From Thermodesulfobacteriota bacterium (GTDB lineage Bacteria; Desulfobacterota; Desulfobacteria; Desulfobacterales; SURF-7), in assembly GCA_049320885.1 (NCBI GenBank), contig JBMORA010000030.1:58570-122569 (forward strand): a stretch of DNA of 64,000 nt, written 5' to 3'. The notes below the pieces were generated by a model, which searched no databases, was not told the DNA's origin, and saw only the letters and a list, made by a program, of their open reading frames with translations. Position numbers and translations under genes: made by a program. Below are positions 9,985 to 63,873 of this stretch, in pieces (the stretch's first letter is position 1; each line of letters begins with the position of its first letter).

Positions 9985-9988
9985 GGCG

Positions 9989-38514: not shown

Positions 38515-39420
38515 GTGCGCACCTTGAACCGTTACGCGATTGCAGGTCTGGCCCTCATTATCGGTGCCATCGTAGCTCTCTGGATGGTCCTGGTTGATCC
38601 CTTTGGTATCAAAACAGGGGATTCACACTATGTTCACCCAAGGATGGTGCGGTACGGCTTCACGGTGACCAATACCACCAACCAGCTGATCCGGAACGCT
38701 GAATTGCTGGTGCGGGCGCCGGTGAAACGGACGGCGCATCAAATCTGCAGCCAATTGACGGTCTCCGCACAGTTTCAAACCCTGGAAGACCAGCTGGGTA
38801 ACCAGGTGCTTCGTCTCATCCTCACGGAAATGCCGCCATTCGGCACCCGGATCATCACCGTGACGGCGGATCTGATGATGGCGGATGCTCCCGGCCGGAT
38901 TTCCCTGGATGACGAGGCTGTCTGGCTGGCGGCAGAGCCGTTCGTGGAGGCCGCTGATCCGGACATCCGGGCCGAGGCCAAGAAACTGGCCGCCGGAAAC
39001 CCCATGGAAACCGCCGCCAGGATCAACGCCTGGACAGCCGACCATATTGATTATTCCGGTTATACCGCCAATGAGCGGGGCGCTCAATACGCCTACAAAA
39101 ATCGCAAAGGCGACTGTACGGAATACATGGACCTGTTTGTGGCCCTGAGCCGGGCCGCCGGCATACCTGCCCGGGGAATCGGCGGGTTCATCTGTCCGGA
39201 AAGCGCCAATCTGGCCCCGGCCGGTTATCACAACTGGGCCGAGTTTCACGACGGCAAGACCTGGAAAACCGCCGATCCCCAGAACCGGATGTTCGTGGAG
39301 AAAGCCCGGGATTACGTGGTCATGCGGGTGATCAGCGCCTCCCGGGAAAAAACAGAGATGCGCTTCGACCGCTTCCGGATGACTACCGAAGGATTGAAAG
39401 TCGTGATGAATGACAATTGA
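38515..39420 (+). CDS. Membrane-anchored transglutaminase-like protein
   Basis: N-terminal TM; GDCTEY..RAAGIPAR..HNWAE..ADP Cys-His-Asp triad. Confidence 0.9.
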   Translation: MRTLNRYAIAGLALIIGAIVALWMVLVDPFGIKTGDSHYVHPRMVRYGFTVTNTTNQLIRNAELLVRAPVKRTAHQICSQLTVSAQFQTLEDQLGNQVLRLILTEMPPFGTRIITVTADLMMADAPGRISLDDEAVWLAAEPFVEAADPDIRAEAKKLAAGNPMETAARINAWTADHIDYSGYTANERGAQYAYKNRKGDCTEYMDLFVALSRAAGIPARGIGGFICPESANLAPAGYHNWAEFHDGKTWKTADPQNRMFVEKARDYVVMRVISASREKTEMRFDRFRMTTEGLKVVMNDN

Positions 39421-39429
39421 TGATCAACT

Positions 39430-39509
39430 CACCATCCACTTCGTTCGAGGCACGGAGGACAAGGAGCAAACCCTCCCCAGCCTCCCCAACTCGAGCGCAG
39501 CGGGTGGTG
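39430..39509. repeat. Degenerate palindromic element (family A)
   Basis: CACCATCCACTTCGTTCGAG pairs with CTCGAGCGCAGCGGGTGGTG; shares AGCGCAGCGGGTGGT with the element at 46064. Confidence 0.65.
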
Positions 39510-39539
39510 GAAAAAAATAATAAAACGGGAAAGCCGACC

Positions 39540-42500
39540 ATGAACCAAGCCCAACGTCGATCCATGTCACTGCTGAAGCTTTTTTTCGTCATGCTTCTCT
39601 GCGTTTCTCCCTTTAAGGCCCAAGCCGCCGACAGCCTCTGCGCCGAGGTGAAGCTGGAGATCAAGCAGGAACTCAGCCTGGAGCGCCAGGCCTTCGACGC
39701 CCACATGCGCATCAACAACGGGCTCACCAACATCAGCCTGGACCAGGTCGGGATCGTGGTGAATTTCACCGACGAGGACGGCAACCCCGTGATCGCCAGT
39801 TTCGATCCCAATGCCGACCCGAATACCACCCGCTTTTTCATCCGGGTGGATTCCATGGACAACATCGCTGACATCGACGGCACCGGCGTCGTGGCCCCGT
39901 CCACCAGCGCCGATATCCATTGGCTGATCATTCCCGCCCAGGGAGCGGCCCAGGGTCTGCCCCAGGGCAAGCTCTATTACGTCGGCGCCACCCTGACCTA
40001 TCGCATCAACGGGGAGGAGAACGTCACCACGGTCACGCCGGATTACATCTATGTCAAACCCTTGCCCGATCTGGCCCTGGATTATTTCATGCCCGAGGAG
40101 GTCTATGGGGACGACGCTTTTACCGGTGCTATTGAACCGCCGGTGCCCTATTCCCTGGGCCTGCGGGTCAAGAACATCGGCCTGGGAATCGCCCGGAACG
40201 TGAAAATCGAGTCCGCCCAACCCAAAATCACGGAAAACACCCAGGGCCTGCTCATCGGTTTCGTCATCGAGGCCGCCGAATCCAACGGCGTGATCGCGTC
40301 CAACACCCTGCTGGCCTCCCTGGGGGACATCGCGCCGGAGACGGCCGGCACGGCCCGCTGGGTCATGACCAGCAGCCTGTCCGGCCGTTTCGTGGACTTC
40401 AGCGCTTCCGTCGCTCATGCCGATGAGCTGGGCGGGGACTTGACTTCCCTGATTCAAACCGAGAATCTGAAAACCCATTTCATGATCCGGGACGTGCTCC
40501 TGGATCTGCCGGGCCGGGACGCTATCCGGGATTTCCTGGCCCGGGACGGCGCGGCCCTCAAGCTCTTCGAAAGCAGCGGTGTGGATACGGCCGTGACGGA
40601 TTTTTCCAGCTCGTCCAGCCTGACGCCGGCGGGTTCTTCGGGCACGGAGACCTATTTTTCACTTTCCACCACCGAGACCAGCGGCCTCGGCTATGTCCGC
40701 CTGGCCGATCCCCACGCGGGCGCGCGGGTGCTGAAGAGCGTGGTGCGCTCCGACGGCAAGATCATCAAGCCCGAAAACGCCTGGCTGTCCAAGTCCCGCA
40801 AGGCGGTTGCCAGCGAAGGCTGGAATTATTTCGTCCACCTCTTCGACGCCGGCGCCACCAATGCCTATACCCTGACTTTCGATGATCCCCTGAACCTGCC
40901 CCAGGCCCCGGTGCTGGAGTTCATTCCCGACCGCAGCGGCGCCGAAGGGCAGCAGCTGGGCTTTCTCATCCAGGCCTCCGACCCCAACGGTACGATTCCC
41001 GCGCTTTCCGCCGAGGCCCTGCCCGTGGGGGCTGATCTGACCGACAACGGCGACGGCACGGCCGCTTTCCTGTGGACCCCGGCCGGGGGCCAGGCCGGCA
41101 GCTACACCATCACCTTTAAGGCCTCCGACGGGACCCTGACCGCCGTGCGGCGGGCCACCCTGACCATCTTCAACCCGGAGGACAGCGACGGCGACGGCAT
41201 GGCCGACTCCTGGGAACTGGCCCATTTCGGCACCCTGGACCGGGACGGCAGCGGCGATTTCGACGGCGACGGCATCTCCGATCTGGACGAATTCCTCAAT
41301 GGCACGGATCCCGGCCGCAGCGACCATGCCCCGAGCGTTCCCGTGATCCTCGCGCCGGCCCTGGACGCCGGCGTGGACACGCGCTCGCCCGTTCTCCAGG
41401 TGGAAAACAGCACGGATGCCGACGGCGACACCCTGACCTATGAATTCGAAGTCTTCACCGACGACAGCCTGACCGAAAAAGTGGCCTCCCAGACCGGCGT
41501 GGTTCAGGGCACCGACGCGACCGGCTGGACCCTGCCCATGGAACTGGACGACAACACCGCCTACACCTTTCGGGTGCGGGCCCGGGATGCGGTCAGCGCC
41601 AGCCTGTGGGCCTACGGCCGCTTTTTCGTCAACACGGAAAACGATCCGCCCACTGCCCCGCGGCCGGACACTCCAGCCGACGGCCGCAACGTAGACTCGG
41701 TCACACCGATGCTGCGAGCCCTTGCGGGTATTGATCCGGACGATGATCCGGTGACCCACACCGTTGAAATCTATACTGACGTCGCCATGACCGAACTGCT
41801 GATCGAGGGTCCGGGTTGGGTCACGGACAGCGGCCGAACCGTGGCCTTCCAGGTGGCCGATCCCCAACTCATTGACCAGACCACCTACTACTGGCGTGTG
41901 ATCGCCCGGGACAGCCTGGGCGCTGAGACCGAAGGGCAGCCGGCTTCCTTTTCCGTGAACCTTGCCAACCACGCGCCCGGACTGCCGGCCATCCTGGCGC
42001 CGGCAGAGGGCCTCGAGATCACTGGCACCACGGTGAATCTGGAGGTGACCAACGCTGAAGACATGGACGGGGACGTTTTGACCTATACCTTTGAAATCGA
42101 CACCAGCGCCGCATTCGACAGTCCCGCAAAGCAGGTGTCCGCCCCGGTTCCGGCCGGAGACGCGGAAACCGCCTGGCAGGTATCCGGGCTGAGCGACAAC
42201 ACCGTCTATTTCTGGCGGGTGCGGGCCGATGACGGCATTGCCCAAGGCCCCTGGGCCGCGGCCGAATGTTTCGTCAACACCGGAAATGACGAACCGGCTG
42301 CTCCGGTGGTGAAAAATCCGGGTCACCACGCCTGGACCACGACCCTGCGGCCGACCCTGTCCGCGGCCCCGGCCGGGGATGCGGACCGTGACGGCCTGAC
42401 CTATGAGTTCGAACTCTACCGCAATGCGGCCCTGACGGAATTGGCGGCCGCGGGCGGTGGTCCGTCTTCGGACTGGACCCTGCCCCTGGATCTCACCCCC

Positions 42501-45500
42501 AACACCCGCTATTTCTGGCGGGTCCAGGTGACGGACCAGCACGGCCTGGCCGGCGACTGGTCCGAAACCGCCGACCTGTTCGTCCAGGAGGAATCCACGC
42601 CGGAGGTGCTGGCCATCGGGGTATCCACCAGCAGCGGCAGGACCCTGGCCGGTGTTCCGGTGTATGCCTTCACCCAGGCCGGAGCCTATACCGGCCTTGT
42701 CAGGACCACGGATCCCGCCGGCCGGGCAGCCTTCGATCCCGCGGCTTTCAACGAGGGTTCCCATACCTTCCGCATCGACTACCTGGGCCGGCAGTTCTGG
42801 TCCGATCCGGTGAGCCTGCCGGGGGCAACCGCTCTCGATGTGGTCATTCCCACGGAAACCGTTTCCTTGGATGTGACCACGGCCGCGGGACCCTCCCCGG
42901 ACACCCGGGTGTACGTATTCGGTCCCGGCAATGCCTATCTCTCGGTCAACGGGATCACCGACGGCGCCGGCCGGGTGGTCTTCGAGCTGCCCGCGGGCGG
43001 GACCTATGATTTCCGCGCCGATCTCATGGGCAGCCAGTACTGGAGCGGTGCAAGCCAGGTGACGGCCGGCGGCGCCAACACCTTCGACGTCACTGCCGGC
43101 GGCGGCGAGTTCACCGTCAGCGTGGGCGAGGACGGCGCAACGCCCCTGCCCGGCCTGCGGGTCTACCTCTTCCATCAGAACGGCGCCTACCTGAACCGCA
43201 ATGCCATCACCGATGCCCAGGGGCAGGCACGCTTCGACGTATCCGCCGGCACCTACCGGGTGCGGGCCGATTACCTGGGCTACCAGTTCTGGAGCGACTA
43301 TACGGAAGTGACGGCGGACAGGGCCGCGACCCTGCCCATTCCCCACCAGGATGTGGCCGTCACCGTCTCCGCCTCCTACCAGGGAGGGGCCGAACCCCTT
43401 GCGGGCGTGCCGGTGTACCTGTTCACCAGGGAAATGGCCTACCAGAACCGCAGCGCCGTCACAAACGGTTCCGGCCAGGTGGTCTTCCATCTGCCGGCCG
43501 GGGCCTATAAAGTGCGGGCCGATTACCGCAGCGGCCAGTTCCTGTCCGAGGAATTCAATCAGACCGATGCCGCGGTGGTCGTTCCCATGGCCGAGGCCCG
43601 GGTGCGGGTGGGCTGGAACACGGCCTTCCTGCCGGATGTGCCGGTGTACGTCTTCACCGCCGGCGGCGCCTACCTGTCCCTGAACAGCGTCAGTGGCGGC
43701 GATGGCACGGTCCTGTTCCGCCTGCCGGCCGGGGGCCAGTACAAATTCCGGGCCGACTACCAGACTGGCCAGTTCTGGAGCAACGAAACCGTTCTGCCTG
43801 CCGACCAGATCAGCCCGGTGGACATCAGCACCGGCGGCGGTTCCTTCACCTTTACCGCCCTCCGGGACGCCGGGGAGTCCATCGAGGGGATCAACTGCTA
43901 TGTGTTCAGCGAAGCCGGGGCCTATTTCGGCGTGTACGGACCCACCGGCGCCGAAGGGGCTGTTTCCTTCGACCTGGCCGACGGGATCTACAACATCCGG
44001 GCCGATTACCTGGGCTACCAGTTCTGGAGCTACCAGCATGAAATGCCCGGCCCCCTTTCCGGGCAGCTGGTCATCCCCCATGAACCGGTGACGGTTTCCG
44101 TCGGCGGCCGTTTCGACGGGGAGGTGACGCCCCTTGCGGACACACCGGTCTATCTCTTTACCGCCGCCGGCGCCTACCAGAACCGCATGCTGACCACCGA
44201 CGCCCAGGGGCAGGTGGTGTTCGACCTGCCGGACCGGGAATACAAGGTCCGCGCCGACTACCTCAGCGGTCAGTTCTGGTCCACGGCCTTCAACCAGCAG
44301 GATATGGCCGTTGCGATCCCCATGGCCGACGCGGAGATCACCGTGACCTACGGCGGCGCCCCGCTGGCCGGCGTGCCGGTCTATGCCTATACCGCGGCCC
44401 ACGCCTATCTGAATCGCCATCAGACAACGGGAACCGACGGCCGGGCCGTATTCCGCCTGCCGGCCTCCGGAACCTACGAGTTCCGGGCCGACTATCAGGC
44501 CAGCCAGTACTGGTCCGGCGAGACCAGCCTCCCGGCCGACCAGGTCAGCCCGGTGGCCATCTCCACCGGCGGCGGGCCGTTCATCTTCACGGTGCGGAAA
44601 TCGGAAAACGAGCCCCTGGCCGGCGTGGCCTGTTATGTGTTCAACGAGGCCGGAACCTATCTCAACCTGAACAACGTGACCAGCAGCGAAGGCCAGGCGA
44701 CCTTCGAACTGGCCAACGGCAATTATAAATTCCGGGTGGACTACCTGGGGTACCAGTACTGGAGCACGGTGAGCCAGGTCCCGGCGGTTTCCACCAGCAC
44801 CCTGACCATCCCCCACGCGGATGTCACCGTCGGTGTGGGCAGCCTGTACCAGGGCGTCAGCGAACCCCTGGCCGGCGTGCCGGTGTATCTCTTCACCGCT
44901 GCGGGGTCTTACCAGAACCTGATCCAGACCACCGACGCGGTGGGCCAGGTGTTGTTCCGCCTGCCCCCCGGCGAATACAAGGCCCGGGCCGATTACCGCA
45001 GCCGCCAGTTCTGGTCCACGGTTTTCAACCAGGCCGATGCGGACGTGGAGATCCCCATGGCCGACGCCCGGATAACGGTCCTGAGCGCCGGAGCGCCCGT
45101 GGCCAATGCGCCGGTCTATGCCTACACCGCCGGCCGCGGCTATCTCAACCTGACCCAGACCACCGACGCCGCCGGCCAGGTCCTGTTCCGCCTGCCGGCC
45201 GGCAGTGCCTATGATTTCCGGGCCGACTACCAGGGAAGCCAGTACTGGGCCGATGATGCGGCCCTGACCGCCGACCTGGTCAACCCCGTTACAATCTCCG
45301 CCGGCGGCGGCGTTTTCGAGCTCACCGTCCGGAAGGACCTTGATCTGCCCCTTCCCGGCGTGCGCTGCTACGTCTTCAGCCAGGCCGGGGCCTACCTGGG
45401 CCTGTCCGGCACCGCCGACGCCCAGGGCCGGGTGCTCTTCAACCTGGCCGACGGCAGTTACAGGTTCCGGGTGGATTACCTCGGCTACCAGTTCTGGACC

Positions 45501-46040
45501 GGCATCCACACCGTGCCCGCCAGCCTGGCGGACGATTTCCTCATCCCCCACCAGGAAGTGACGGTCACGGTGGAAAGCCTGTACCAGAATCCGGCGCCCC
45601 TTGGCGGCGTGAAGGTCTACCTCTTCACCCAGAGCGGCGCCTACCAGAACCAGAACCAAACCACCGGCGCCGACGGCCGGGTGACCTTCAGCCTGCCCGA
45701 GAAAGCCTACAAGGTGCGGGCCGATTACCTGGGTTACCAGTTCTGGTCCGCCGCGCCCTTCACCTGGACCGATCCCCTGGTCACCATCGACCATGGCCTG
45801 GCCCGGGTGCATACCCATCGCGCCGGAGTCGATCAGCCCGGCGCCCGGGTCTATCTCTACACCGGAGCCGGCGCTTACATGAACCAATATAAGGACACCG
45901 GTACCACGGGTTTGGCCGAGTTCCTCCTCCCCAACCAGCCCTACAAGTTCCGGGCCGACCAGGGCGTCGACTCGGTTTACAGCAACACAATCACGGTGAC
46001 ACCGGGGGTGGAGACCGTGGTGGAGGTGGATTTGGATTAG
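39540..46040 (+). CDS. Large exported repeat protein (Ig/FN3-like, DxDxDG Ca-binding motifs, 14 prealbumin/carboxypeptidase-regulatory-like repeats)
   Basis: Signal peptide ending AQA-ADS; DSDGDGMADSWE; repeated GVPVYLFT..TTD..G.V.F.LP.G.Y..RADY..QFWS. Confidence 0.85.
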   Translation: MNQAQRRSMSLLKLFFVMLLCVSPFKAQAADSLCAEVKLEIKQELSLERQAFDAHMRINNGLTNISLDQVGIVVNFTDEDGNPVIASFDPNADPNTTRFFIRVDSMDNIADIDGTGVVAPSTSADIHWLIIPAQGAAQGLPQGKLYYVGATLTYRINGEENVTTVTPDYIYVKPLPDLALDYFMPEEVYGDDAFTGAIEPPVPYSLGLRVKNIGLGIARNVKIESAQPKITENTQGLLIGFVIEAAESNGVIASNTLLASLGDIAPETAGTARWVMTSSLSGRFVDFSASVAHADELGGDLTSLIQTENLKTHFMIRDVLLDLPGRDAIRDFLARDGAALKLFESSGVDTAVTDFSSSSSLTPAGSSGTETYFSLSTTETSGLGYVRLADPHAGARVLKSVVRSDGKIIKPENAWLSKSRKAVASEGWNYFVHLFDAGATNAYTLTFDDPLNLPQAPVLEFIPDRSGAEGQQLGFLIQASDPNGTIPALSAEALPVGADLTDNGDGTAAFLWTPAGGQAGSYTITFKASDGTLTAVRRATLTIFNPEDSDGDGMADSWELAHFGTLDRDGSGDFDGDGISDLDEFLNGTDPGRSDHAPSVPVILAPALDAGVDTRSPVLQVENSTDADGDTLTYEFEVFTDDSLTEKVASQTGVVQGTDATGWTLPMELDDNTAYTFRVRARDAVSASLWAYGRFFVNTENDPPTAPRPDTPADGRNVDSVTPMLRALAGIDPDDDPVTHTVEIYTDVAMTELLIEGPGWVTDSGRTVAFQVADPQLIDQTTYYWRVIARDSLGAETEGQPASFSVNLANHAPGLPAILAPAEGLEITGTTVNLEVTNAEDMDGDVLTYTFEIDTSAAFDSPAKQVSAPVPAGDAETAWQVSGLSDNTVYFWRVRADDGIAQGPWAAAECFVNTGNDEPAAPVVKNPGHHAWTTTLRPTLSAAPAGDADRDGLTYEFELYRNAALTELAAAGGGPSSDWTLPLDLTPNTRYFWRVQVTDQHGLAGDWSETADLFVQEESTPEVLAIGVSTSSGRTLAGVPVYAFTQAGAYTGLVRTTDPAGRAAFDPAAFNEGSHTFRIDYLGRQFWSDPVSLPGATALDVVIPTETVSLDVTTAAGPSPDTRVYVFGPGNAYLSVNGITDGAGRVVFELPAGGTYDFRADLMGSQYWSGASQVTAGGANTFDVTAGGGEFTVSVGEDGATPLPGLRVYLFHQNGAYLNRNAITDAQGQARFDVSAGTYRVRADYLGYQFWSDYTEVTADRAATLPIPHQDVAVTVSASYQGGAEPLAGVPVYLFTREMAYQNRSAVTNGSGQVVFHLPAGAYKVRADYRSGQFLSEEFNQTDAAVVVPMAEARVRVGWNTAFLPDVPVYVFTAGGAYLSLNSVSGGDGTVLFRLPAGGQYKFRADYQTGQFWSNETVLPADQISPVDISTGGGSFTFTALRDAGESIEGINCYVFSEAGAYFGVYGPTGAEGAVSFDLADGIYNIRADYLGYQFWSYQHEMPGPLSGQLVIPHEPVTVSVGGRFDGEVTPLADTPVYLFTAAGAYQNRMLTTDAQGQVVFDLPDREYKVRADYLSGQFWSTAFNQQDMAVAIPMADAEITVTYGGAPLAGVPVYAYTAAHAYLNRHQTTGTDGRAVFRLPASGTYEFRADYQASQYWSGETSLPADQVSPVAISTGGGPFIFTVRKSENEPLAGVACYVFNEAGTYLNLNNVTSSEGQATFELANGNYKFRVDYLGYQYWSTVSQVPAVSTSTLTIPHADVTVGVGSLYQGVSEPLAGVPVYLFTAAGSYQNLIQTTDAVGQVLFRLPPGEYKARADYRSRQFWSTVFNQADADVEIPMADARITVLSAGAPVANAPVYAYTAGRGYLNLTQTTDAAGQVLFRLPAGSAYDFRADYQGSQYWADDAALTADLVNPVTISAGGGVFELTVRKDLDLPLPGVRCYVFSQAGAYLGLSGTADAQGRVLFNLADGSYRFRVDYLGYQFWTGIHTVPASLADDFLIPHQEVTVTVESLYQNPAPLGGVKVYLFTQSGAYQNQNQTTGADGRVTFSLPEKAYKVRADYLGYQFWSAAPFTWTDPLVTIDHGLARVHTHRAGVDQPGARVYLYTGAGAYMNQYKDTGTTGLAEFLLPNQPYKFRADQGVDSVYSNTITVTPGVETVVEVDLD

Positions 46041-46063
46041 GGTGCAGTTGAAAAAGGATTTGA

Positions 46064-46191
46064 TCTGATTTGGATATGTTTTTTAACCACGAAGAACACG
46101 AAGGACACGAAGAAAGACAGAACTGTTTTCCCCGGCGCAGCCGGCAGACTTCGTGCGCTTCGTGTACTTCAGCGCAGCGGGTGGTTGAAAG
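46064..46191. repeat. Palindromic element family A (CACGAAG-core 9-mers), left of the rhodanese gene
   Basis: ACCACGAAG-AACACGAAG-GACACGAAG ... CTTCGTGCG-CTTCGTGTA-CTTC..GTGGT. Confidence 0.9.
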
Positions 46192-46211
46192 TGGTTTATA
46201 AAGGAAATCAT

Positions 46212-47006
46212 ATGAAAGCGATGAAAATATTGATGTTGGGAGTTATGGCATTGATGCTGACGCCCACTTTTTCGATTTCAGCCGACAACAACAAAACAGA
46301 AACCGATGCCACCGTCAGCTCGGAAAAGGCCCTACGCGAATTTCGGCTAAACAAGATTCTCCTCATCGACGTCCGCAGCCAGGAAGCCTACGACAAGCTC
46401 CACATCCCCGGCTCGCTCAACATCCCGCTGTTCGCCGTCAAGACCAAGCCTTTCCTGAAAACCAGACCCATCATCCTGGTAAACGAAGGCTTTAGCATCA
46501 CTCCTCTGGAAACCGAATGCCGATCCCTCCAGGCCAAAGGCTTTCACGCAACCGTTCTGGCAGGCGGCCTCATTGCCTGGAATGCCCAAAAGGCCCCCCT
46601 GGAAGGCGATCCCCGTGAACTCGCAACGCTCCGGATGGTCACCGCCGACACGTTCCACCAGGAAAAAAACCGCCCCGGACTGGTTCTTGTCGATGCCGCC
46701 AAACCCGAACCAGCAAAACCAACCCAACCAATCAACGCAATCCCTCTGACCACTTTCGTCTCCACCAAACAAAAACGAAGCCCCCAGCCGGTCCTCATTT
46801 TCACCGGGGACGGCGCAGGCTATGACAATATACAGTATCAACTCGAAAAAGCCGGTGCCGGACCGGCCTTTTTTCTATCCGGCGGCATCCAGGGCTATAA
46901 CTCCTTTTTGAATAACCTGGCCCTGCTGCACCGGCCCCAGGAGGAGCGCACCCAGAGCATCAGCGCCTGCCCCTCCTGCGCCAAAAAGGCAAAGGATGAT
47001 GTCTGA
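46212..47006 (+). CDS. Exported rhodanese-like domain protein
   Basis: Signal peptide; LIDVRSQEAYDKLHIPGSLNIP, LAGGLIAW and second LSGGIQGY motifs; C-terminal CPSC. Confidence 0.85.
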   Translation: MKAMKILMLGVMALMLTPTFSISADNNKTETDATVSSEKALREFRLNKILLIDVRSQEAYDKLHIPGSLNIPLFAVKTKPFLKTRPIILVNEGFSITPLETECRSLQAKGFHATVLAGGLIAWNAQKAPLEGDPRELATLRMVTADTFHQEKNRPGLVLVDAAKPEPAKPTQPINAIPLTTFVSTKQKRSPQPVLIFTGDGAGYDNIQYQLEKAGAGPAFFLSGGIQGYNSFLNNLALLHRPQEERTQSISACPSCAKKAKDDV

Positions 47007-47120
47007 TTTGGATATTGTTATTCACCACGAAGGACACGAAGAAAGACAGAACTGTTTTTCCCGGCGCAGCCGGCAGACTTCGTGCTCTTCGTGTACTTCA
47101 GCGAAGCGGGTGGTTGAAAG
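47002..47120. repeat. Palindromic element family A, right of the rhodanese gene
   Basis: Near-identical direct copy of 46064-46191 with one 9-mer fewer. Confidence 0.9.
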
Positions 47121-47148
47121 AGAATAAAACACAATTGATTTTCACCAT

Positions 47149-56100: not shown

Positions 56101-59100
56101 CTCAACCAGAGCCTTTTGACCAGCCCGGTCTACACGGATATCGGTTATAGCGCCGACACCCGCGTCTATACCCTGACGGCCGTGAACGACGGAGAGGAGA
56201 GCCTGGCCCGCAGCGTGACCCTGCCCAAGATCAAGGCGGTTCTGCCGGATGGTACGGCCATCAAACGCGGGCTGATGAACCGCCTGGAATACCAGGTGAC
56301 CAACAGCGCGGATCAGGCTGTCGAGGCTGTGACCCTTAAGGTGCGTCTGAACAACCGCGACCATCTGTCCGAGACCGTCAGCCTGGCTGCCGGCGAGACC
56401 CGCAGCCTGCCCGTGGTGGTGGCCGGTTACAGCGAGCTGCCGGATCTGGCGGCCATGACCGCCACCCTGACGATCAGCCCGGCCACGGGCGAGACCGTGC
56501 GCATCATCCGCACCAGCGAGATCGAGGTGGAAGACGGCTCCCTGGTGCTCCAGATCGTCAACGAGGAGTTCACCCGGGGCGGTATCGGCAAGGTGGGCTT
56601 CACCCTGCAGAACACCGGCGAAGAGGAGATCGAGGTGACCCTGGCCAAAAGTTCCGGGACCAAGCCTTCCGACCAGGTGACCTTCAAGCTCCTGGATACT
56701 GACGGCAACGTCATCGCCTCCCAGGGCTTCAAACAAACCGTGGGCGACATGATCGTCACCCTGGCCAATGGCAACACCGTGGCGCGCATCCCGGCCGGCC
56801 AGACCTTCACCTCGGCCCTGTTCGACCTGACCGTGCCGGCCAATGCGCCGGACCGGGTCACGGTCCAGCTTTCCATCAGCACCATCTACCATCACCAGGG
56901 CCGCACGGATCAGGTATCCATGAGCGGCCCGTCCACCACCCATGAGGTCTATCTCATCGACACCTCCTATTACGGCGCGGTGGACAGCATCGCTCCTGCC
57001 GTATCTGCCGGCGACCAGGACATCGTCATCACCGGCCGGGCCGTCGACCGCAGCACCCTCCAGCCCCTTGCCAGCGTGCCCCTCAAGCTGGTGATAACGG
57101 TCAAGGGCTTCGAGCGCAGCTATGAAGTCTACACCGCGGCGGACGGAACCTTCTCCCATGCCTTCACGCCCCTTGCCGGCGAGGCCGGGGTCTATACCGT
57201 CCGGGTGGTGCATCCGGATCTCACGGACAAGCCCGTGCACGGCGAGTTCACCATCGGCAGGACCAGCGTCAGCCCCACCACCATCAACCTGGACCTGTCG
57301 CGCAACTACCAGAAGACCATCCACATCACCGTCAAGACCAGCGAGGGCAACGCCCTTGAAAACGCCCGGCTGATCTGCGCCAACGCGGACCAGCCCGGCG
57401 GGGTCCTGGCTCCGGGCGTGAGCGTTTCCATGGGTCCGGCCAAGAACATCCCCTCGGCCGGGTCCGGAACCTTGAGCTTCACCATCTCCGCGGACAACAG
57501 CGCGGCCGAGACCGCCACCATCATCCTGAAGGCCGTCAGCGGCAGCGAGCCCATTGTCCACGCCACGGTGCGGATCAACGCCCGGTTCCTGGAAGCCAAG
57601 CCTGTGCTGTATTTCTCGCCCAATCACGTGGACACCGGCGTGGCCCTGGACAACACCCAGGTGGAAAGCGTGACCCTGACCAACAAAGGCGTGGGCGACA
57701 TGAACGACGTGGCCGTGTCCTTGCGCAATGAGGACGGCAGTCCCGCGCCGGCCTGGGTGTACCTGAACTCCGCCGCGGACCAGGGGGTCCTTGCCGTGGG
57801 TGAAAGCCAAAAAATCGACGTGGCCTTCTCGCCCAAGGCGGGCGTGACCCCCGAAGGCAATTATCTTTTCCTCCTGCGGGTGACTTCCAGCAACCACGCC
57901 ACCCGGGATATCTATCTGGCTGTTGCCGTGACCCAGTCCGGCCAGGGCGGGGTCTTGTTCAAACTGTCCGACATCTACACCGGCACCCTGGACCAGAACA
58001 ACCAGCTCATTCCCGGCCTGGCCGGCGCCAAGATCCGGCTGCGCAACGAACTGGTGACTACTGACGAAGTCACCCTGACCAGCGACAACCAGGGCGAGGC
58101 CCTGTTCGAAAACATCCCCACCGGCCGCTACCAGTACCGCGTCACAGCCGCCAACCACAGCGAGGCCACCGGCCGGGTGTGGATCAAACCGGGGGTTACG
58201 ACCAACCAGGAAGTGTTTCTGGACTATAACCTGGTCACCGTGGAATGGGAGGTGAACGAGATCACCTTGGAGGATCGATACGAGATCACCCTGAACACCA
58301 CCTTTGTCACGGATGTTCCCGCGCCTGTGGTGGTGGCCAAGCCCGCATCCATCGCCCTGCCCAAGATGAAGGCCGGCGATGTCCATACCGGCGAATTGAC
58401 CTTGACCAACCATGGCCTGGTCCGGGCCGACAACCTGGAGTTCAGCTTGCCTTCCGATGATCAGTATTTCGATTACGAATTGTTGGGCGGCATTCCCGAG
58501 AGTCTCGCCGCCAAGCAGATTCTGACCCTGCCGTTCCGCGTCACCTGCCTGATGTCCATCGACGCGGATGGCGGCACCGGCGGCGCCAATCCCTGCCGGA
58601 CTTACAAACGCTGTGGCAGGATCGCCTTTACCTATATCTGTGCCAACGGTAATGAATCCGGATCTAAAACTGGTTTTTGCATCACTTCTGTCGGCGAATG
58701 TCCGACGGGAGATAATCCGCCATTCGGTGGTGGCTGGTTCGGAGACCAGACAGCCAATTTGAAAGATGGCGAAAACGGTAATGCCGCGGAAAGTCAAAAG
58801 CCGTCTGCATCACCTCAGAAAGTGAAAGGTACAAAAAACGTTTGCTATCCGGAATCCAAGAGGAAAAAATGCTGGTGCGACCCCTGCCAGACGAACGTCA
58901 CCTGCAAGGATGTCCTGGAGCCGGGCGGATCTCACACGAACACCTTGCTGCGCAGTTATCAAAGAGAAGATCATGACATGTCGGTGAAAGTTCCCGGCGG
59001 TATGCTTGAACTGAAAAGAACCTATCAGGATCATGATTGGAGTATTGAGCCGTTCTCGATGAATCCGGTAACGGGAGTTTCCGGGATTACCCAATGGGTA

Positions 59101-62100
59101 TACTGTACCGGTGACTTTAAAATTGTCACGGCTTTGATACAAAACGGGGTGGTATTCCGGTTGACGGATGGGGCCTATGCAATCCGAACAGAGTATAATC
59201 CGAATGGTACTATCCAATCGCGTGAGCTGGAATTTATCGGTACTCCAATATATAGGGATGAAGACGGTAACCAGATCACGCAATATGACAATGGCTATGA
59301 ATACGTTGATTCCAACGGAAACATTGTTCGTTATGACGGTACCGGGAGGGTTGGAACAATCAGCAACCGGAATGGCGTCTTTGCACAAGCCATCTATGAT
59401 CCCGATGATGGACGCTTGATCGGGGTCGCCGACAAGTATGGTCATCAAGTGGTTTGGTATGAGTACAATCCGAACGATCAGCTGTCCGCTGTACATGATG
59501 GCGTGAATCGTCGTGTGGAGTATTCCTATAATGCCGACGGACTGCTTGAAACCGTGACGGATGTTCTCGGCCACGTGACACGATTCGATTATACACTGAT
59601 AGGTGAGGAATCATCGGAGTTAGAGCCGGAAACCTATCACCTTGCTTTCACTCACAAAGTCTTGCCCGGGAGCGGCGTTGAGGGTGGTAGCATGCCATGC
59701 AGTTACGTCACTCCCGATGATGGCCACAGTGGTCATGTCGCCAGCATGATTTACATGCCTACAAAAAGACAAGTGTATGCTATTAGCAAGGTCACTGATC
59801 AGGAGGGCCGCGTCAAACAGATCCAATATGACGAATACGGCGATGTCATCGCCATGCAGGATGCCAGCGGCGCCAAAACATTCAGCTACGATTATGACGA
59901 TAAGAAGAAGGAGTATTACGCCTCCATCACCTCCGCGTCCGGACAGGTGAAAGAAGTCTGGTACGATTCTCTGGGCCGGACCAGGCGGGTGGATATCAAC
60001 GGCAAGACCGTCAGAAAGATCACGGTGGACGGCCGCACCATTCATCTCACGGATGAAAACGGCTATGTCACCGTATACAAGTACGACGAATGGGCGCGGC
60101 TGACCGCCACCGTCAACCCCGATGGCACGGTTGTCGGCAGCGAATACAACAAAACCATCAACCGCCTCATCGAGCAGACCGATGAAGCCGGCGTGGTGAC
60201 GGAATACGAATACAACAGCGAAAAACTGCTGGAACGGAAAATCGAGGCCGCGGGAACCGCAAGGGAACGCATCACCGAATACACCTATGATGCGGACGCC
60301 AACCTGCTGACCGTAAAACAGGCGGGCAATGCGGAGACGCCGGAAGCCCTCACCGTCATGACCTACGACAGCGCCGGCAACCTTGCCACCATCACCGACG
60401 CCGAGGGCAACCTCACCCGGTTCACCAGCTACGACAACATGGGCAACGTGCTCACCAAGATCGACCCGCGCGGCCAGGAATGGACCTACACCTATGACGC
60501 CGCCGGTCACCTGCTCACCGCCACCGATCCGGATGACAATGTTACCCGGTTCTTCTACGACAGGGTCGGCAACAAGATCCGCGAGGTGGATGCCGAGGGC
60601 CGGGAAAAGCTGTTCGTCTATGATGCCGAAGACAACCTCATCGAAACCACCGACGCTGCCGGCAAGAAGACCCTGTTTGCCTACAACTCGGACAACAAGC
60701 TCATCCGCCAGACCGATCCCACCGGTCGGGTGATGCAGTACCAGTACGACAACCAGGGCCGCCTGATGCGCACCATTGACGGCAACGGCAACCAGATCGC
60801 CATGCAGTATGAATACGGCGGCTCCGGCTGCTCCTCCTGTTCCGGCGGGGGCGGCAGCCAGGTTGCAAAAACCATCTTCCCGACCTTCGAGCAGGCCTAT
60901 GCCTATGACCGGCGCGGAAGAAAGACGCTGGAAAGCGATATCACGGATTCTGAAACCATAACCACCCGGTTCGCCTACGATCCGGTGGGCAGCCTCACCC
61001 GAAAAACCGACAAGGCCGGCAAGATCACGTATTATTCCTATGACGATCTGAGACGGCTCACGGCCGTGACCGATCCGCTGGACGGCGTCACCGAGTACAC
61101 CTACGACAGCCGCGACAACCTGGTGTCTCTCAAGGACGCCAAGGGCCAGACCACCCTGTTCGAGTACGACAGGAACAACCGGCTCGTCAAAGAGATCCGG
61201 CCCATGAACCAGGCCACGACCTATGCTTACGACGAGGCCGGCAACCTGGTCCGCAAGTTCGACGCCAAGGGCCAGAAGACCGAATATGTCTATAACGACC
61301 TCGGTCAATTGGTGAATATCCTGTATTTTGAAACCGGCGTTCCCACGCCCCACAAGACCGTGACCTTCACCTACGACAAGGTCGGCAACCTGACCGCTTA
61401 TGACGACGGGGTCACCTCGGCTGTGTACGAATATGACGCCAATTACCGCAAGGCAATCGAAACCGTGGATTACGGTCCGTTCAGCCTGTCCAACAGCATG
61501 ACTTATCATGACAACGGCCTGAAAAAGACCTTCACCGGACCGGACGGCATCCAGTACACCTACGGCTACGATGCCGCCAATCAGTTCAGCAACCTGGATA
61601 TTCCAGGGATGGGTTCCGTGACCGTCAACGAGTACACCTGGAACCGGCCGAAAACCATGACCCTGCCCGGCGGCTCCACCAAGGAGTTCACCTACGATCC
61701 GCTGATGCGGATCGACCGGATGAAGGTGAAGGACCCGGCATTAAACAGCCTGTTGAATTATGAGTACGAATATGACACAATGGACAACATCACGGACAAG
61801 AATACCGAGCACGGGGATTACACCTACGGGTACGACGATCTGTACCGGCTCACGGAAAGCGATAACCCCATCGGCGTCAGCGACGAAACGTTCACCTACG
61901 ATGCCGTGGGCAACCGTCTGACCGCGGCCGACACCATCGGCCCCTGGGCCTACAACCCGAACAACGAGCTCGGCGGCTACGACGACGTAACCTATGAATA
62001 CGACGCCAACGGAAACACGATCAAGAAGACCGACGGCGGAGTCGTCACCAGCTACGTTTACAATACAGAGGACCGCCTGACCCAGGTATGGGACGGCGAA

Positions 62101-63060
62101 GTCGGTACCGGCTCTTTGACAGCCACATATTATTACGATCCCTTTGGGCGCAGATTGTGGAAGGATGTGGGCGGAACACGGACGTACTTCCATTACGCCG
62201 ATGAAGGCCTGATCGGGGAGTATGACGGTTCAGGAGCCGAGATTAAGGCGTACGGGTACAAACCCGGCTCCACGTGGACCACTGATCCACTGTTCATGAA
62301 GGTCGGATCGGAATACTACTTCTACCAAAACGACCATCTTGGGACTCCTCAGAAAATGACTACCGTCAGTGGGGCCGTGGTCTGGTCGGCGGAATACTCA
62401 TCATTCGGCAAGGCGGAGATCGTTCCCGCATCCACGGTTGTCAACAATCTGCGGTTCCCGGGCCAATATTATGACTCAGAGACCGGGTTTCATTATAACC
62501 TTAATCGTTACTATGATTCAGGTTTAGGGAAGTACCTGACTGCAGATCCGATTGGACTATTAGGTGGAATCAATCGATATGCTTATGTTGAGGGAAATCC
62601 AATTTTTTATTTAGACGCAATCGGGCTCATGAAAGAAAGCGAAATTAGAGAACTTGTTGTTGCAAACAATCAATCAAATCTCAGCACCGAGTTGATTCTT
62701 TGCATAATTTATAAAGAGAGCACCTTCAATCCAAATGCAAAGAGAAGTGATGGTGGCAGTGCAAAAGGCTTTATGGGGGTAACTGATTCTTCGGCAGAAT
62801 GGGTTGGATACAATTCGAGTGATATGTTGAAACCAGAAGATAATATTAAAGCCGGCACTAAACTTCTTAACAGGTTCGTTAATTGGAAAGCCTATGGAAA
62901 TGGAAATGTCGCTTATGGGCTTAGCAGATACGGAACAGGCGACAAGGAGACACCCGTATACTCGAAGCAAATATTGGATTGCGAGGAATGTCTAAAAAAT
63001 AAAGTCGCCCAAAAATGTGATAATCACGATGATTGTTACAAGCCATTACATAGGAAATAA
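47149..63060 (+). CDS. Giant adhesin-RHS polymorphic toxin (~5300 aa; Gly-rich repeats, Ig/FN3, LamG, YD/RHS core, lysozyme/SLT-like C-terminus); start may be 47168-47190
   Basis: Signal peptide ending AKA-DP; LamG motifs WHHLAVI..DDVRVYN; YD repeats; RFPGQYYD..YNLNRYYD..DPIGL..NP..DAIGL core end. Confidence 0.93.
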   Translation: MRKVGKMNKQRGTMNANGLSSSNSTTERKTALSTISRIVFLLFFFLIQSANPAKADPVVITANTTISATDMSYDNQAVTVDACTVTINGAHQFESLTLINGAKVTHSANSTAQVNIIDIAITNDLAIDVNSSFDVNGLGYSKDQGTGKGIGGDYGGGGGGHGGNGGYGGSSGGRPGGESYDSIMVPSLIGSGGGTSTYNTDGNGGAGGGGVRLSVGGRLENNGTITAIGTNGTTGSYGGGGGSGGFIHLTAGELAGGGTITANGGNGANTTYGGGGAGGRIAVYYNNDNYTGNISACGGTGKQSGAAGSVYLHSNTSGESRVVFDNALNTGAFTNISGVLPNIVISNKAVVVASEEITAGDCTVDNATFYVNSKTSIENVTLLNNGVVTHSSNNISQTYTIDLVVSGNMTIDVASFIDANGLGYEKDQGIAKGIGGDYGGGGGGHGGNGGYGGSSGGRPGGESYDSIMVPSLIGSGGGTSTYNTDGNGGAGGGGVRLSVGGRLENNGTITAIGTNGTTGSYGGGGGSGGFIHLTAGELAGGGTITANGGNGANTTYGGGGAGGRIAVYYSTNNYTGVITAYGGTGKQSGGAGSIYVKSNATNEGQLIIDNGSRSGASSTISGTFPDIVIRNSAVVVATGEVIAADCAIDSAIFYADYRSSVDNVTISNNGVLTHSTNTTAQTCIIDMVVSGDMVIETGGKIDAKGLGYASDTGPGAGAVANLYGPGAGHGGKGGNGGGGAVGGNSYDSIELPALIGSGGSKAGNYNLSGGSGGGGVRVNIGGRLQNNGIIQADGNTGAVNNNYCGGGGSGGFIHLSVGELTGSGVISANGGNGGNTNYGGGGSGGRIALYYSETRPALTFNMANITVTGGTGYQNGEAGTIYIAEVATPVITTNGGRDFSTNIAELTLEGTCLADAHTILVNDSATNVIHTTGDPSWSYTCTLAEGANPFSVVAENSLGVRSGAATITVTMNTTPPGAPEITTNSGGDFTVQNALVQLEGTCTADSTSILVNGSASGVTYTPGATTWTYSGEVAPGENLISVTARNAAGLTSPPDTIRITFQNTIPAQPVNQAPPDGDATVGWQVILQASAFSDADSDTHSATQWQIRQQSATWDNPAFDQISTSNLTQIQTPQGVLDWTTGYAWRVRYKDSRGSWSAWSNETGFTTISDNLPPEEVTGLTVTASNADSLVIAWNHSANTASDLAAYLVYVNEEYRDQVLADQNTFTVNGLSPATGYAIKVTARDQGDNESAGVSITAATLLPNPANLTARPGSTRVTLTWDPAVPAELVSHYAIYNSTSSFSSVEGLTPVAPTVTGTSADITTGITPGTEYYFAVTTVNISGGEDRAVTPISVTPVQGIVAHYTMDSITGNQLHDETGAHPGAIQGSPAAIAGYDGNALDLNGSTDWIASDSLAQDLRTGDSITLTLWFNTTAAKVNDGNNILFGANTGTKGDLFRLGTGSSGGIFHSVGTSNNEYGAGYNNGAWHHLAVIQQASGAFRIYVDNVLLQTGTKAAVAWNNAAFHSFGQEWDPAGPTDFFDGLLDDVRVYNYALTTAEIAALYVDQLPPELAETIPAAGSMTPSPQEIRITLLDRNGAVDRDATAPTIVVTDSANQPVGGAIGGTGSVFVFTPDLPFMEATYQVSLIAADMAGNTQEYTFSFTVDNQAPAAFAITGGTVTSGLIQPAPAVNLASNAGVTLTGTREANTSVWINGVQGAALGSGDWAAALTLAEGDNTLTVTLKDPAGNESPAVTVYIRLDATAPAAGAMTPAHNSITNQIPAAITVEVVEAGSGLDQAGSTMAVRDAGLALVPGSWSLDGSLLIFTPQSALTDSVYTVTLQLRDLAGNLGGLVQNQFTLDTAPPAAPVIEPVVSPAHNTTQTIRGTREAYCAVVMNGGQIAGNTAATSFEHTVTLSSGDNVFTFIAVDRAGNQSLPATVTIVYDDVPPLSVTTLTVDPAGDGTQVTLSWTGYNEAEHGDIALYRIYRSDAMFAAVNDPGVELLNTVGAGVFTHTVSGLTRNQTYYFAVVAVDQSGNFTSAVTAVAGTPQDTRAPGEVNNLTVTSYEDRLVYTWQPGPADDLAGFKIYLDGSATPAATLNADGLSYERTGLAPAGAYPFRITATDGTNESAGVSLTGHTWLDNPAGLTATPYSGKVTLAWNAVAPPAHVKHYAVYYKAGSDFGGEVAGAPALITTGLTAQIAGLTNNTPYFFAVTAVNLSGGERKTVTSVTATPAADSQGPEVVNPTAGGSPLVTGMTLTQSLTLSLTANDPAGVGRVEFYIDGALLRTDYTGPDYTCNLELANLADGAHTLTIKVFDTLGNSTVTDYGFTVALSPPAAPVITQPAAGLTVNQPALNVSGQAVKLTTVQLFRNDIAEGSPLTVDSQGNFSTTITLTEGLNKLEAAAVNRAGTGPKSAPVNVTLNTAVPLPPASLAAETRGGGTIRLIWPASESSGVTGYNLYRAAQPFTDKAAAVKVNTSLITATQTDNLPATDGTWHYRVTCINTAGNESDLSAPVEAKSDRVGPKAIAIVYTSTGTVGPDGAMAPGRVNVVLTVDEPLMTLPFLSMAPEGGTPISVELTKEDDLTFTGFFDITGNTVSARAWANFSARDAAGNRGTEIVSGTSILIDTDGPAVSRLVVTPLAPIRNDAAAPVTIQAILGLSETSKTEAGIVLGYVLPSQGGEPVTIANLTKIATVAGDAETWQAEFVLPAGAGQAGPETLAFAYTGSDNLDNVSHEITAANQFQVYQGSLPPLAAPAGLSAEAMPGGEVILSWKAVANAVAYQVYRKAPGEPGLTSFMRVDSGLEYNDQTTEDGLYTYAVASIRSENSQESESGLSNPVTVTTDSIAPAPPTGLVLDLIPQGVRANWTASASAEPVTYAFYRAAAETTAPEDATQIQEGFTQTSWIDFHPSNAQHWYFITAVDGVGNESAPCAPQYLDFALLPVANVVVTQQDYTLPVITWTHPSAAAIDGYNIYLGPVSQGVKLNQSLLTSPVYTDIGYSADTRVYTLTAVNDGEESLARSVTLPKIKAVLPDGTAIKRGLMNRLEYQVTNSADQAVEAVTLKVRLNNRDHLSETVSLAAGETRSLPVVVAGYSELPDLAAMTATLTISPATGETVRIIRTSEIEVEDGSLVLQIVNEEFTRGGIGKVGFTLQNTGEEEIEVTLAKSSGTKPSDQVTFKLLDTDGNVIASQGFKQTVGDMIVTLANGNTVARIPAGQTFTSALFDLTVPANAPDRVTVQLSISTIYHHQGRTDQVSMSGPSTTHEVYLIDTSYYGAVDSIAPAVSAGDQDIVITGRAVDRSTLQPLASVPLKLVITVKGFERSYEVYTAADGTFSHAFTPLAGEAGVYTVRVVHPDLTDKPVHGEFTIGRTSVSPTTINLDLSRNYQKTIHITVKTSEGNALENARLICANADQPGGVLAPGVSVSMGPAKNIPSAGSGTLSFTISADNSAAETATIILKAVSGSEPIVHATVRINARFLEAKPVLYFSPNHVDTGVALDNTQVESVTLTNKGVGDMNDVAVSLRNEDGSPAPAWVYLNSAADQGVLAVGESQKIDVAFSPKAGVTPEGNYLFLLRVTSSNHATRDIYLAVAVTQSGQGGVLFKLSDIYTGTLDQNNQLIPGLAGAKIRLRNELVTTDEVTLTSDNQGEALFENIPTGRYQYRVTAANHSEATGRVWIKPGVTTNQEVFLDYNLVTVEWEVNEITLEDRYEITLNTTFVTDVPAPVVVAKPASIALPKMKAGDVHTGELTLTNHGLVRADNLEFSLPSDDQYFDYELLGGIPESLAAKQILTLPFRVTCLMSIDADGGTGGANPCRTYKRCGRIAFTYICANGNESGSKTGFCITSVGECPTGDNPPFGGGWFGDQTANLKDGENGNAAESQKPSASPQKVKGTKNVCYPESKRKKCWCDPCQTNVTCKDVLEPGGSHTNTLLRSYQREDHDMSVKVPGGMLELKRTYQDHDWSIEPFSMNPVTGVSGITQWVYCTGDFKIVTALIQNGVVFRLTDGAYAIRTEYNPNGTIQSRELEFIGTPIYRDEDGNQITQYDNGYEYVDSNGNIVRYDGTGRVGTISNRNGVFAQAIYDPDDGRLIGVADKYGHQVVWYEYNPNDQLSAVHDGVNRRVEYSYNADGLLETVTDVLGHVTRFDYTLIGEESSELEPETYHLAFTHKVLPGSGVEGGSMPCSYVTPDDGHSGHVASMIYMPTKRQVYAISKVTDQEGRVKQIQYDEYGDVIAMQDASGAKTFSYDYDDKKKEYYASITSASGQVKEVWYDSLGRTRRVDINGKTVRKITVDGRTIHLTDENGYVTVYKYDEWARLTATVNPDGTVVGSEYNKTINRLIEQTDEAGVVTEYEYNSEKLLERKIEAAGTARERITEYTYDADANLLTVKQAGNAETPEALTVMTYDSAGNLATITDAEGNLTRFTSYDNMGNVLTKIDPRGQEWTYTYDAAGHLLTATDPDDNVTRFFYDRVGNKIREVDAEGREKLFVYDAEDNLIETTDAAGKKTLFAYNSDNKLIRQTDPTGRVMQYQYDNQGRLMRTIDGNGNQIAMQYEYGGSGCSSCSGGGGSQVAKTIFPTFEQAYAYDRRGRKTLESDITDSETITTRFAYDPVGSLTRKTDKAGKITYYSYDDLRRLTAVTDPLDGVTEYTYDSRDNLVSLKDAKGQTTLFEYDRNNRLVKEIRPMNQATTYAYDEAGNLVRKFDAKGQKTEYVYNDLGQLVNILYFETGVPTPHKTVTFTYDKVGNLTAYDDGVTSAVYEYDANYRKAIETVDYGPFSLSNSMTYHDNGLKKTFTGPDGIQYTYGYDAANQFSNLDIPGMGSVTVNEYTWNRPKTMTLPGGSTKEFTYDPLMRIDRMKVKDPALNSLLNYEYEYDTMDNITDKNTEHGDYTYGYDDLYRLTESDNPIGVSDETFTYDAVGNRLTAADTIGPWAYNPNNELGGYDDVTYEYDANGNTIKKTDGGVVTSYVYNTEDRLTQVWDGEVGTGSLTATYYYDPFGRRLWKDVGGTRTYFHYADEGLIGEYDGSGAEIKAYGYKPGSTWTTDPLFMKVGSEYYFYQNDHLGTPQKMTTVSGAVVWSAEYSSFGKAEIVPASTVVNNLRFPGQYYDSETGFHYNLNRYYDSGLGKYLTADPIGLLGGINRYAYVEGNPIFYLDAIGLMKESEIRELVVANNQSNLSTELILCIIYKESTFNPNAKRSDGGSAKGFMGVTDSSAEWVGYNSSDMLKPEDNIKAGTKLLNRFVNWKAYGNGNVAYGLSRYGTGDKETPVYSKQILDCEECLKNKVAQKCDNHDDCYKPLHRK
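47589..48855 (+). repeat. 415 bp near-identical internal duplication (47589-48003 and 48441-48855)
   Basis: Offset 852 bp; one substitution seen near the start. Confidence 0.9.
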
Positions 63061-63061
63061 A

Positions 63062-63469
63062 ATGAAAAAACATATATATGGTTTATTGATCATACTTACA
63101 ATAGTGTCTCCCGCATTAGCGATAGATGATTTTTTGATTGCTTTGCAAGGACGAATATATAGCGATGAAAAGATAATATCTGTAAATAGATGGTCGACAG
63201 AGCATGGAAACTTGATATGCATTTATAGTAGACCTATCACATATAAATGGGGAAGCGATGTTGAAAAAGAAAATTTACAGCATTTCGTAATTTACATGCA
63301 ATCGAAAGGTCGTTTAAGTGTAGTATATAAAGAGGATATTTATGATATTATCCTTGGGATTGTGCAATACAACGACAAATTTTTGCATGTAAGTGTACCC
63401 GGTGGGAGCACATATCATATAAAAACATATTCTTTTGACGGGAAAAAGGTTACAATGAAATTTGAGTAG
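63062..63469 (+). CDS. Exported immunity protein candidate
   Basis: Starts 1 nt after the toxin stop; AT-rich; signal peptide MKKHIYGLLIILTIVSPALA. Confidence 0.75.
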   Translation: MKKHIYGLLIILTIVSPALAIDDFLIALQGRIYSDEKIISVNRWSTEHGNLICIYSRPITYKWGSDVEKENLQHFVIYMQSKGRLSVVYKEDIYDIILGIVQYNDKFLHVSVPGGSTYHIKTYSFDGKKVTMKFE

Positions 63470-63809: not shown

Positions 63810-63873
63810 GGGTACAAACCCGGCTCCACCTGGACCACTGATCCGTTGTTTATGAAGGTCGGATCGGAATACT
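63810..63873 (+). repeat. 64 bp remnant of the RHS core (copy of 62254-62317)
   Basis: GGGTACAAACCCGGCTCCAC..GGTCGGATCGGAATACT; about 4 mismatches. Confidence 0.88.

Follow-up and report, generated by a model that had tools for sequence, protein, structure and literature searches.

Results

Gene content of the locus

The window, the whole stretch of 64,000 nucleotides that was analysed, comes from a Thermodesulfobacteriota bacterium (GTDB lineage Desulfobacterota; Desulfobacteria; Desulfobacterales; SURF-7) whose genome is 98% complete, and covers positions 58,570-122,569 of the forward strand of contig JBMORA010000030.1 (assembly GCA_049320885.1); its last base is the end of that contig, here called C30. 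Five genes follow each other on the forward strand. The first, TG (38515-39420, 301 aa), encodes a transglutaminase-like protein with an N-terminal membrane anchor (PF01841, E 4.7e-20). The second, P2 (39417-46040), encodes a giant partner protein of 2207 aa, with its likely start at Met42 of the open reading frame (position 39540), which carries a signal peptide, an unannotated region of 425 aa that we call P2N (39624-40898; three predicted beta-sandwich domains in an AF2 model), TSP3, Ig and FN3 modules and CarboxypepD-like repeats (Pfam matches TSP3, He_PIG, FN3 and CarboxypepD_reg). The third, Rhod (46185-47006, 273 aa, likely start 46212), encodes a pseudo-rhodanese (PF00581) with a signal peptide and a conserved C-terminal CxxC motif. 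A repeat of about 100 bp lies on both sides of the Rhod gene (46086-46190 and 47026-47119) and has 7 matches genome-wide.

The fourth gene, P4 (47149-63060), encodes a protein of 5303 aa in which a signal peptide is followed by Gly-rich repeats, an Ig/FN3/LamG stalk (Pfam FN3, Big and Laminin_G_3), a link region, an Rhs shell with RHS repeats and RHS core, and a C-terminal tip. The link (residues ~2850-3860; 55696-58728) combines Ig-type domains and a tail rich in Cys with a hairpin (58234-58305) that is highly conserved, and its last domain bears a Gly-rich loop (58549-58593) that is a predicted processing site. The Rhs/YD shell (58921-62628; PF05593, PF03527, TIGR03696, NF041261) contains both autoprotease aspartate motifs (D5133 and D5156), and the tip (62629-63060) is an SLT lytic transglycosylase domain (PF01464, E 1.3e-13). 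The last gene, Imm (63017-63469, 150 aa, likely start 63062), encodes a likely periplasmic immunity protein with a signal-like N-terminus.

Open reading frames and hydropathy confirmed the original prediction of five co-oriented genes, each with an N-terminal signal or transmembrane segment, and the start of the shell near residue 3925 agrees with the ~3900 aa that it had placed before the YD core; the SLT tip and the missing rhodanese cysteine had both been overlooked. All five proteins have a hydrophobic N-terminal stretch (12-residue Kyte-Doolittle mean 2.5-2.9); elsewhere in them, whether internally or at the C-terminus, hydropathy showed no TM-like segment. Signal peptides were called by hydropathy and inspection, which read the N-terminus of TG as an anchor that is not cleaved and placed an AxA-like cleavage site at the end of each of the other four. 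The GC content of the tip (39%) and of Imm (32%) differs from the 54-65% found elsewhere in the locus. Long minus-strand open reading frames (40659-45887, 50017-54072 and 54145-58797) were read as shadows of GC-rich coding and set aside. Contigs of sequencing run X1, which may be the source sample, span most of 48000-63681, and none of them crosses the end of C30; no RNA run was listed as carrying the locus.

Recurrence of the locus

P2N was detected in 53 of 301 Desulfobacterales-level genomes and the link in 41, of which 38 are also P2N-positive; co-occurrence in 38 genomes compares with 7.2 expected under independence, a figure to be read with kin genomes not being independent. The TG subfamily is present in 38 of the 301 genomes, 37 of them with P2N, and the sole genome without it holds a Rhod-TG remnant. 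With this query the link was not matched in 15 of the 53 P2N genomes, many of which are fragmented and one of which is a single-contig genome.

Beyond the order, P2N was found in 3400 clusters at 50% identity (E<=0.001), its closest named relatives being Desulfobacterales records (86% and 79%), and hosts of P2N loci reach Nitrospirae, Elusimicrobia, Lentisphaerales, Beta- and Gammaproteobacteria. In the best 80 of 409 P2N loci, a set whose flanks are short relative to the giant genes and which overlaps the genomes carrying G handles in this work, at least one partner gene was present in 74 loci: within 10 kb of P2N we found TG in 56, Rhod in 37, the link in 18 and Rhs in 22. Gene order differs between related loci, and in P2 homologs P2N is constant and the C-terminal modules are variable. 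In a quick tree, P2N sequences associated with RHS grouped together (SH-aLRT 98); this tree of 55 rows (the even-numbered loci of L076-L155 plus 15 others) gave long-branch warnings and names no donor. A first metagenome scan found nothing. The proposal that the four-gene core recurs with variable C-termini thus held, with P2N in 53 of 301 genomes and 59 tips falling into 33 clusters.

Toxin tips and candidate immunity genes

The tip of P4 has Glu5190 at the SLT catalytic position and aligns, weakly (E 0.005), with the SLT domain of PDB 9b45. Twenty closed tips in frame with the link form 15 clusters; the set of 59 was reached by adding 39 tips from 80 further loci, a few of these tips being orphan cassettes. 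The SLT tip is unique among these 59, the largest cluster (n=17) contains the many PT-HINT tips, and most tips have no Pfam match, the matches of the others including HNH, AHH, LHH, Ntox8, PLA2, SLT, PT-HINT and, weakly, CHAP. The same-genus ortholog of P4 shares 65-71% identity with it over stalk, link and core and carries a different tip, and the gene downstream of that tip is unrelated to Imm. Imm itself gave no Pfam match; a structural search with it returned one matching cluster with 94% SLT members, which lies under the bar for naming and serves as a lead only. Antibacterial pairs that act in the periplasm are expected to look like this, with a tip that lyses the wall and a signal peptide on the partner, and the SLT tip and Imm are likely a peptidoglycan-lytic toxin and its periplasmic immunity protein, as predicted from their sequences.

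Contig C10 carries three orphan core-tip cassettes; a small gene is visible downstream of two of them, and the remaining one lies where the contig ends. Behind Imm, on the forward strand, a remnant of Rhs-core DNA (63810-63873) is 94% identical over 64 bp to 62254-62317 and has further matches on C10, and the DNA flanking it is common to the C10 orphan-cassette spacers. We consider it very probable that the locus encodes a polymorphic antibacterial toxin.

Other Rhs genes with small downstream genes occur in this genome at C24:69020-85858 and C33:47416-51086, and that on C24 adjoins a gene for a 3723-aa giant sharing the FN3/TSP3 region of P2, without P2N.

The P2N and link regions

The AF2 model of P2N (pLDDT 92) comprises three beta-sandwiches. 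Searches of the PDB returned no match at Z>=8 and generic beta-sandwich matches alone, the best of them (Z 7.9, rmsd 2.3, 97 aligned) covering the first domain only; Foldseek TM scores were <= 0.26, and the matches in the ESM Atlas were to unnamed clusters. In the link, the 381 modelled P4 residues before the Rhs shell are Ig-type, and fold searches gave single-domain matches of the PapD-like, transthyretin/CnaB-like and MSP-like kinds (best Z 12.2, rmsd 1.7, 87 aligned). The conserved hairpin modelled at pLDDT 55-58 when folded alone, against 87.9 for the link overall, as would be expected if it needed a partner.

Both regions are found in one chain in two giants of G183 that end in RTX, in G017 and in a giant encoded on a Nostoc plasmid. 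Two animal giants, from Saccoglossus (P0126) and Halocaridina (P0219), contain 2-3 tandem link-P2N modules with RxKR sites, and P0255 has the reversed order Rhs-P2N-stalk-link. Because both halves are fused in the RTX giants, in Nostoc and in two animals, there is a good chance that link and P2N are the two halves of one split hub and form a docked complex. A cysteine at the start of P2N (39639-39641) occupies a position that is Cys in 247 of 247 N-terminal forms, and in 72 of 246 it is the single Cys of the domain; in three short direct link-P2N fusions both this residue and the link-tail cysteines are missing. From these patterns we infer a putative disulfide-tethered P2-P4 heterodimer. An outer-membrane anchor was not evident, a C-terminal TM segment being present in 4 and a lipobox-like motif in 6 of 247 P2 homologs. 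In P0243 and P0255, a degenerate-ended Rhs core is fused straight to P2N.

There are also link proteins that bear HINT and others that have no Rhs. Cys-rich tips with neither a Pfam match nor an immunity gene, and with P2 directly after, are found in loci L033, L053, L122, L126, L149, L154, L155 and L030. Together these forms indicate that the hub does not carry a toxin in every case, and they are the ground for reading the system mainly as a branched adhesin or matrix scaffold in which the Rhs tip is optional cargo and rarely kills. The HINT-type, Cys-rich, RTX-fused and animal forms, in which link-P2N comes with no Rhs, agree with such a scaffold, as does the one tip class without an immunity gene, and the toxin model leaves the passage of the tip across the outer membrane of the target unexplained. 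The canonical antibacterial nuclease and wall-hydrolase tips, the swapped downstream genes and the orphan cassettes speak against it, and we regard the scaffold reading as improbable and retain that of a toxin.

Two further arrangements were observed. In a Rhs-less clade (L064, L068, L202, L204 and L205), a small domain and then, at the end of the protein, HINT come after the link; the rhodanese of this clade is divergent, and dockerins occur in its neighbours. A second locus of G265 encodes a Rhs-less link protein ending in a Cys-rich domain.

Putative helper proteins and the predicted processing loop

The Cys/His/Asp triad of TG is kept in 29 of 29 aligned homologs. The link loop is Gly-rich in 35 of 43 rows, with a T/S-G-G-G-like sequence in most rows, and is basic in several loci that have no TG; in the Saccoglossus protein P0126, an RRKR furin-type site aligns on it. 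TG is present in 24 of 25 genomes with a Gly-rich loop compared with none of 6 without one, a pattern that is mostly clade-confounded, the close TG-less relatives (53-57% P2N identity) being G236 and the second G265 locus only. In the latter the loop is basic and no TG gene lies in the 40 kb covered. Two TG-less, HINT-bearing loci encode a membrane-anchored HExxH zincin after the rhodanese. Because this zincin takes the TG slot there, it appears somewhat likelier than even that TG is a processing protease cutting the link loop; the loop-TG pattern and the RRKR alignment join the zincin in favouring a protease over a cross-linker.

On the same platform, TG could act instead as a transamidase whose sortase-like use of the Gly-rich loop either joins P2 covalently to P4 or fixes the complex on the envelope. 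The family name and the intact triad suit acyl transfer equally, the T/S-G-G-G-like loop of most rows recalls sortase chemistry, and no other anchor is evident. A zincin, which is of the hydrolase type, in the TG slot of two loci, basic loops in several TG-less loci and a furin-type site in the animal homolog all count against a transamidase, which we hold to be unlikely; proteolytic processing by TG is the reading kept below.

The naming of Rhod as a classical rhodanese sulfurtransferase did not survive the alignment: at what we take, from the general rhodanese alignment, to be the active-site position, Cys is absent in 39 of 39 rows, and N, D, S, H or G occupies it in the five commonest classes. 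The two cysteines of the CxxC motif are kept in 33 and 37 of 39 rows. The absence of the active-site Cys together with the retained terminal CxxC suggests that Rhod may serve as a chaperone or redox helper.

Export

No gene for TssC, VgrG or PAAR was found in the 98%-complete genome, in which the controls were positive, and TssC is missing in 21 of the 38 genomes carrying both link and P2N. The lack of PAAR, VgrG and T6SS genes, originally noted within the window, is thereby borne out genome-wide, and P4 does not have the genomic marks of a T6SS effector. Those of CDI or two-partner systems were likewise absent, neither a TPS domain nor FHA repeats being found in P2 or P4; a single ShlB-type gene occurs in the genome, on another contig (C44).

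A plasmid of Eleftheria terrae carries, all in one orientation, genes for link, Rhs (here a separate protein), ankyrin, P2, gspG-F-E, three further genes, a secretin, three pseudopilins, rhodanese and TG, so that members of the toxin locus enclose a complete type II secretion operon. Among the 80 loci L229-L311 without L231, L273 and L274, Rhs is fused to the link in 13 and is a separate adjacent gene in 44, with a hydrophobic N-terminus in 43 of these 44; gsp genes then follow in 5 of the 9 loci having at least 400 bp beyond the core. Whereas the original prediction had left the outer-membrane route blank, T2SS genes are thus operon-linked in Betaproteobacteria-type loci. The genome studied here encodes a canonical GspD (E 3e-156), which is common anyway, GspD being over the cut-off in 249 of 301 genomes, and its C63 cluster best matches the Eleftheria operon (GspE 54%). 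Predicted signal peptides on the giants and a T2SS in the genome are the genomic features of T2SS substrates, and P2 and P4 probably leave the cell by this system. An order-wide, dedicated TPR-secretin subtype was also considered and rejected: the subtype in question, which is the best match to the Eleftheria operon, is present in 33 of 301 genomes and in only 5 of the 53 P2N-positive ones.

It would also be conceivable that the giants exit by vesicles or lysis, by the two-partner pore on C44 or by the T4SS of the neighbouring integrative and conjugative element (ICE), and that the T2SS linkage is a lineage-specific accident. The presence of gsp matches in the flanks of only 2 of 80 mostly Desulfobacterales loci would fit such a route, as would the one ShlB-type gene in the genome and giants that are very large for a secretin. 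It is opposed by the Eleftheria plasmid, where the T2SS genes stand between the structural genes and the rhodanese-TG pair in one orientation, by the lack of a TPS domain in P2 and P4 and by the absence of ICE genes near 80 loci (the best 80 of 409). We judge such alternative exits very improbable, and T2SS export remains the favoured route.

Genomic context

Upstream of the locus, at a tRNA-Arg gene, lies an integrative element (17345-37999, no strand assigned; context that is not conserved) with a tyrosine integrase, an HD-domain relaxase-like gene and AbiEii/AbiEi. Its tra set is of a reduced F-type (E, K-like, B, C, H and G), with no traD noticed in the window, and the toxin locus lies 3 kb behind its traG and AbiE genes. 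The 3' end of the tRNA-Arg gene recurs at C61:13226-47417 (L157 and L158), with ~34 kb of defence-like genes after it; by inspection these include a WYL-like regulator, helicases, a methyltransferase and a McrBC-like gene. This copy is a candidate attR, or right end, of the element, so the toxin locus may be element cargo in this genome.

Spread by the ICE, as originally proposed, was not upheld as a general route: the ICE proteins of the window had no match in 80 related loci (the best 80 of 409, among them 41 whose upstream flank spans 8 kb or more), and in the same-genus genome G197 the locus lies beside oxidoreductase and metabolic genes. Plasmid copies do exist in Methylomonas, in which the locus is near mobH/traD. 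The locus is one that moves horizontally at times, and not via one ICE.

Elsewhere in the window, an operon resembling Na+-NQR was seen at 8120-13944 (nqrA-F by inspection), and translation of C6:28700-30295 of this genome, near a contig end, showed regularly spaced repeats with the look of a CRISPR array.

Discussion

In WapA/WapI and in T6SS Rhs effectors, an Rhs shell, aspartyl autoprotease motifs and tip-immunity pairs are found as they are here; the present locus differs from them in its diderm host, in its multi-chain platform and in that no PAAR, VgrG or TssC was found. LapG resembles TG in being a Cys enzyme of transglutaminase fold that is periplasmic and serves one giant surface protein, LapA; LapG is of another family, and LapA is exported by a T1SS and has no toxin. 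TG belongs to PF01841 and has a membrane anchor, which sets it apart from LapG.

In the portion of the text available, Zhang et al. (2012; PMC3482391) already describe "T2SS/Sec-dependent" polymorphic Rhs toxins as a class, and the locus resembles its members in signal peptide, Rhs repeats, LamG/Ig modules, polymorphic tips, immunity genes, orphan cassettes and, in some, HINT. For this class their table gives no signature neighbour genes, and in that portion transglutaminases appear as inactive domains joined to the N-terminal end of the toxin, whereas the present locus has separate, conserved genes for a TG with an intact triad, for a pseudo-rhodanese and for a second giant; the word "rhodanese" is absent from the portion searched. 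Bacterial Teneurin-like proteins (TLPs; PMC13018210) are, in the part of that article consulted, Sec-targeted, T6SS-independent diderm YD-shell toxins, including some of Thermodesulfobacteriota, and share with the locus variable adhesion N-termini, polymorphic tips, immunity genes and an animal connection. How TLPs exit diderm cells and reach their targets is put there as an open question. TLPs are defined there by an FN-plug/NHL/YD superfold; P4 has the link instead and would need partner genes, no NHL or propeller family was found in it by Pfam and NCBIfam scans, and TEN_YD-shell fell below the cut-off. The animal homologs described here share the hub and not the YD shell. A giant of ~6000 aa from Ca. 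Menyafoubacter (PMC12057145) resembles P4 in its signal peptide, adhesion modules and Rhs region, and the sections seen name no partner genes. Two further articles (PMC12096838 and PMC13274458) proved, in the parts seen, unrelated to the locus.

A description of the locus was absent from the open literature searched, with most subscription journals outside it, and the supplements of PMC3482391 could list members. Nor did that literature yield the split hub, the pair of TG and pseudo-rhodanese, the Rhs chain as a separable protein or the linkage to gsp genes. The original claim of a new polymorphic-toxin system has to be narrowed, since Sec-type diderm Rhs toxins have been described in the portions seen of PMC3482391 and PMC13018210, while its conserved partner giant, helper genes and T6SS independence are supported.

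On balance we favour, with some confidence, a conserved multi-gene polymorphic Rhs toxin made of Sec- and T2SS-exported giants, with a split hub and a swappable tip directed against neighbouring bacteria. P2, P4, Rhod and Imm would enter the periplasm by Sec, where the link hairpin would pack on P2N and the Cys at the P2N start would form a disulfide with the Cys-rich link tail, possibly with the CxxC pseudo-rhodanese as an assembly or redox helper. TG, at the inner membrane, may then cleave the Gly-rich loop of the last link domain, much as furin is expected to act on the RRKR at that place in the animal homolog, and the Rhs part would stay held by strands and disulfides. The folded complex would exit through a T2SS secretin and bind surfaces by its LamG, Ig, FN3 and CarboxypepD arms. 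The Rhs autoprotease is predicted to free the tip after Leu5160, the tip would attack the peptidoglycan of the neighbour, and periplasmic Imm would protect kin.

Whether this amounts to a new class of delivery apparatus is a bolder proposition, to which we give slightly less than even weight: a T2SS-exported, protease-matured, disulfide-tethered split hub would form a multi-chain machine that docks interchangeable adhesin arms together with an Rhs warhead, either fused or as its own chain, and the hub would survive in animal giants with the loop turned into a furin site. If true, this would be a second link from a toxin platform to animals beside the Teneurins. The locus family offers a candidate exit route, in the linked gsp operon, and a candidate for the maturation enzyme, for which a cut site is predicted; Eleftheria terrae and Methylomonas koyamae are cultured, non-pathogenic hosts for stepwise testing. 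The analysis exposes a large unannotated domain pair common to bacteria and animals (3400 clusters at 50% identity) and a likely competition weapon carried by roughly a sixth of the genomes in a major order of sulfate reducers.
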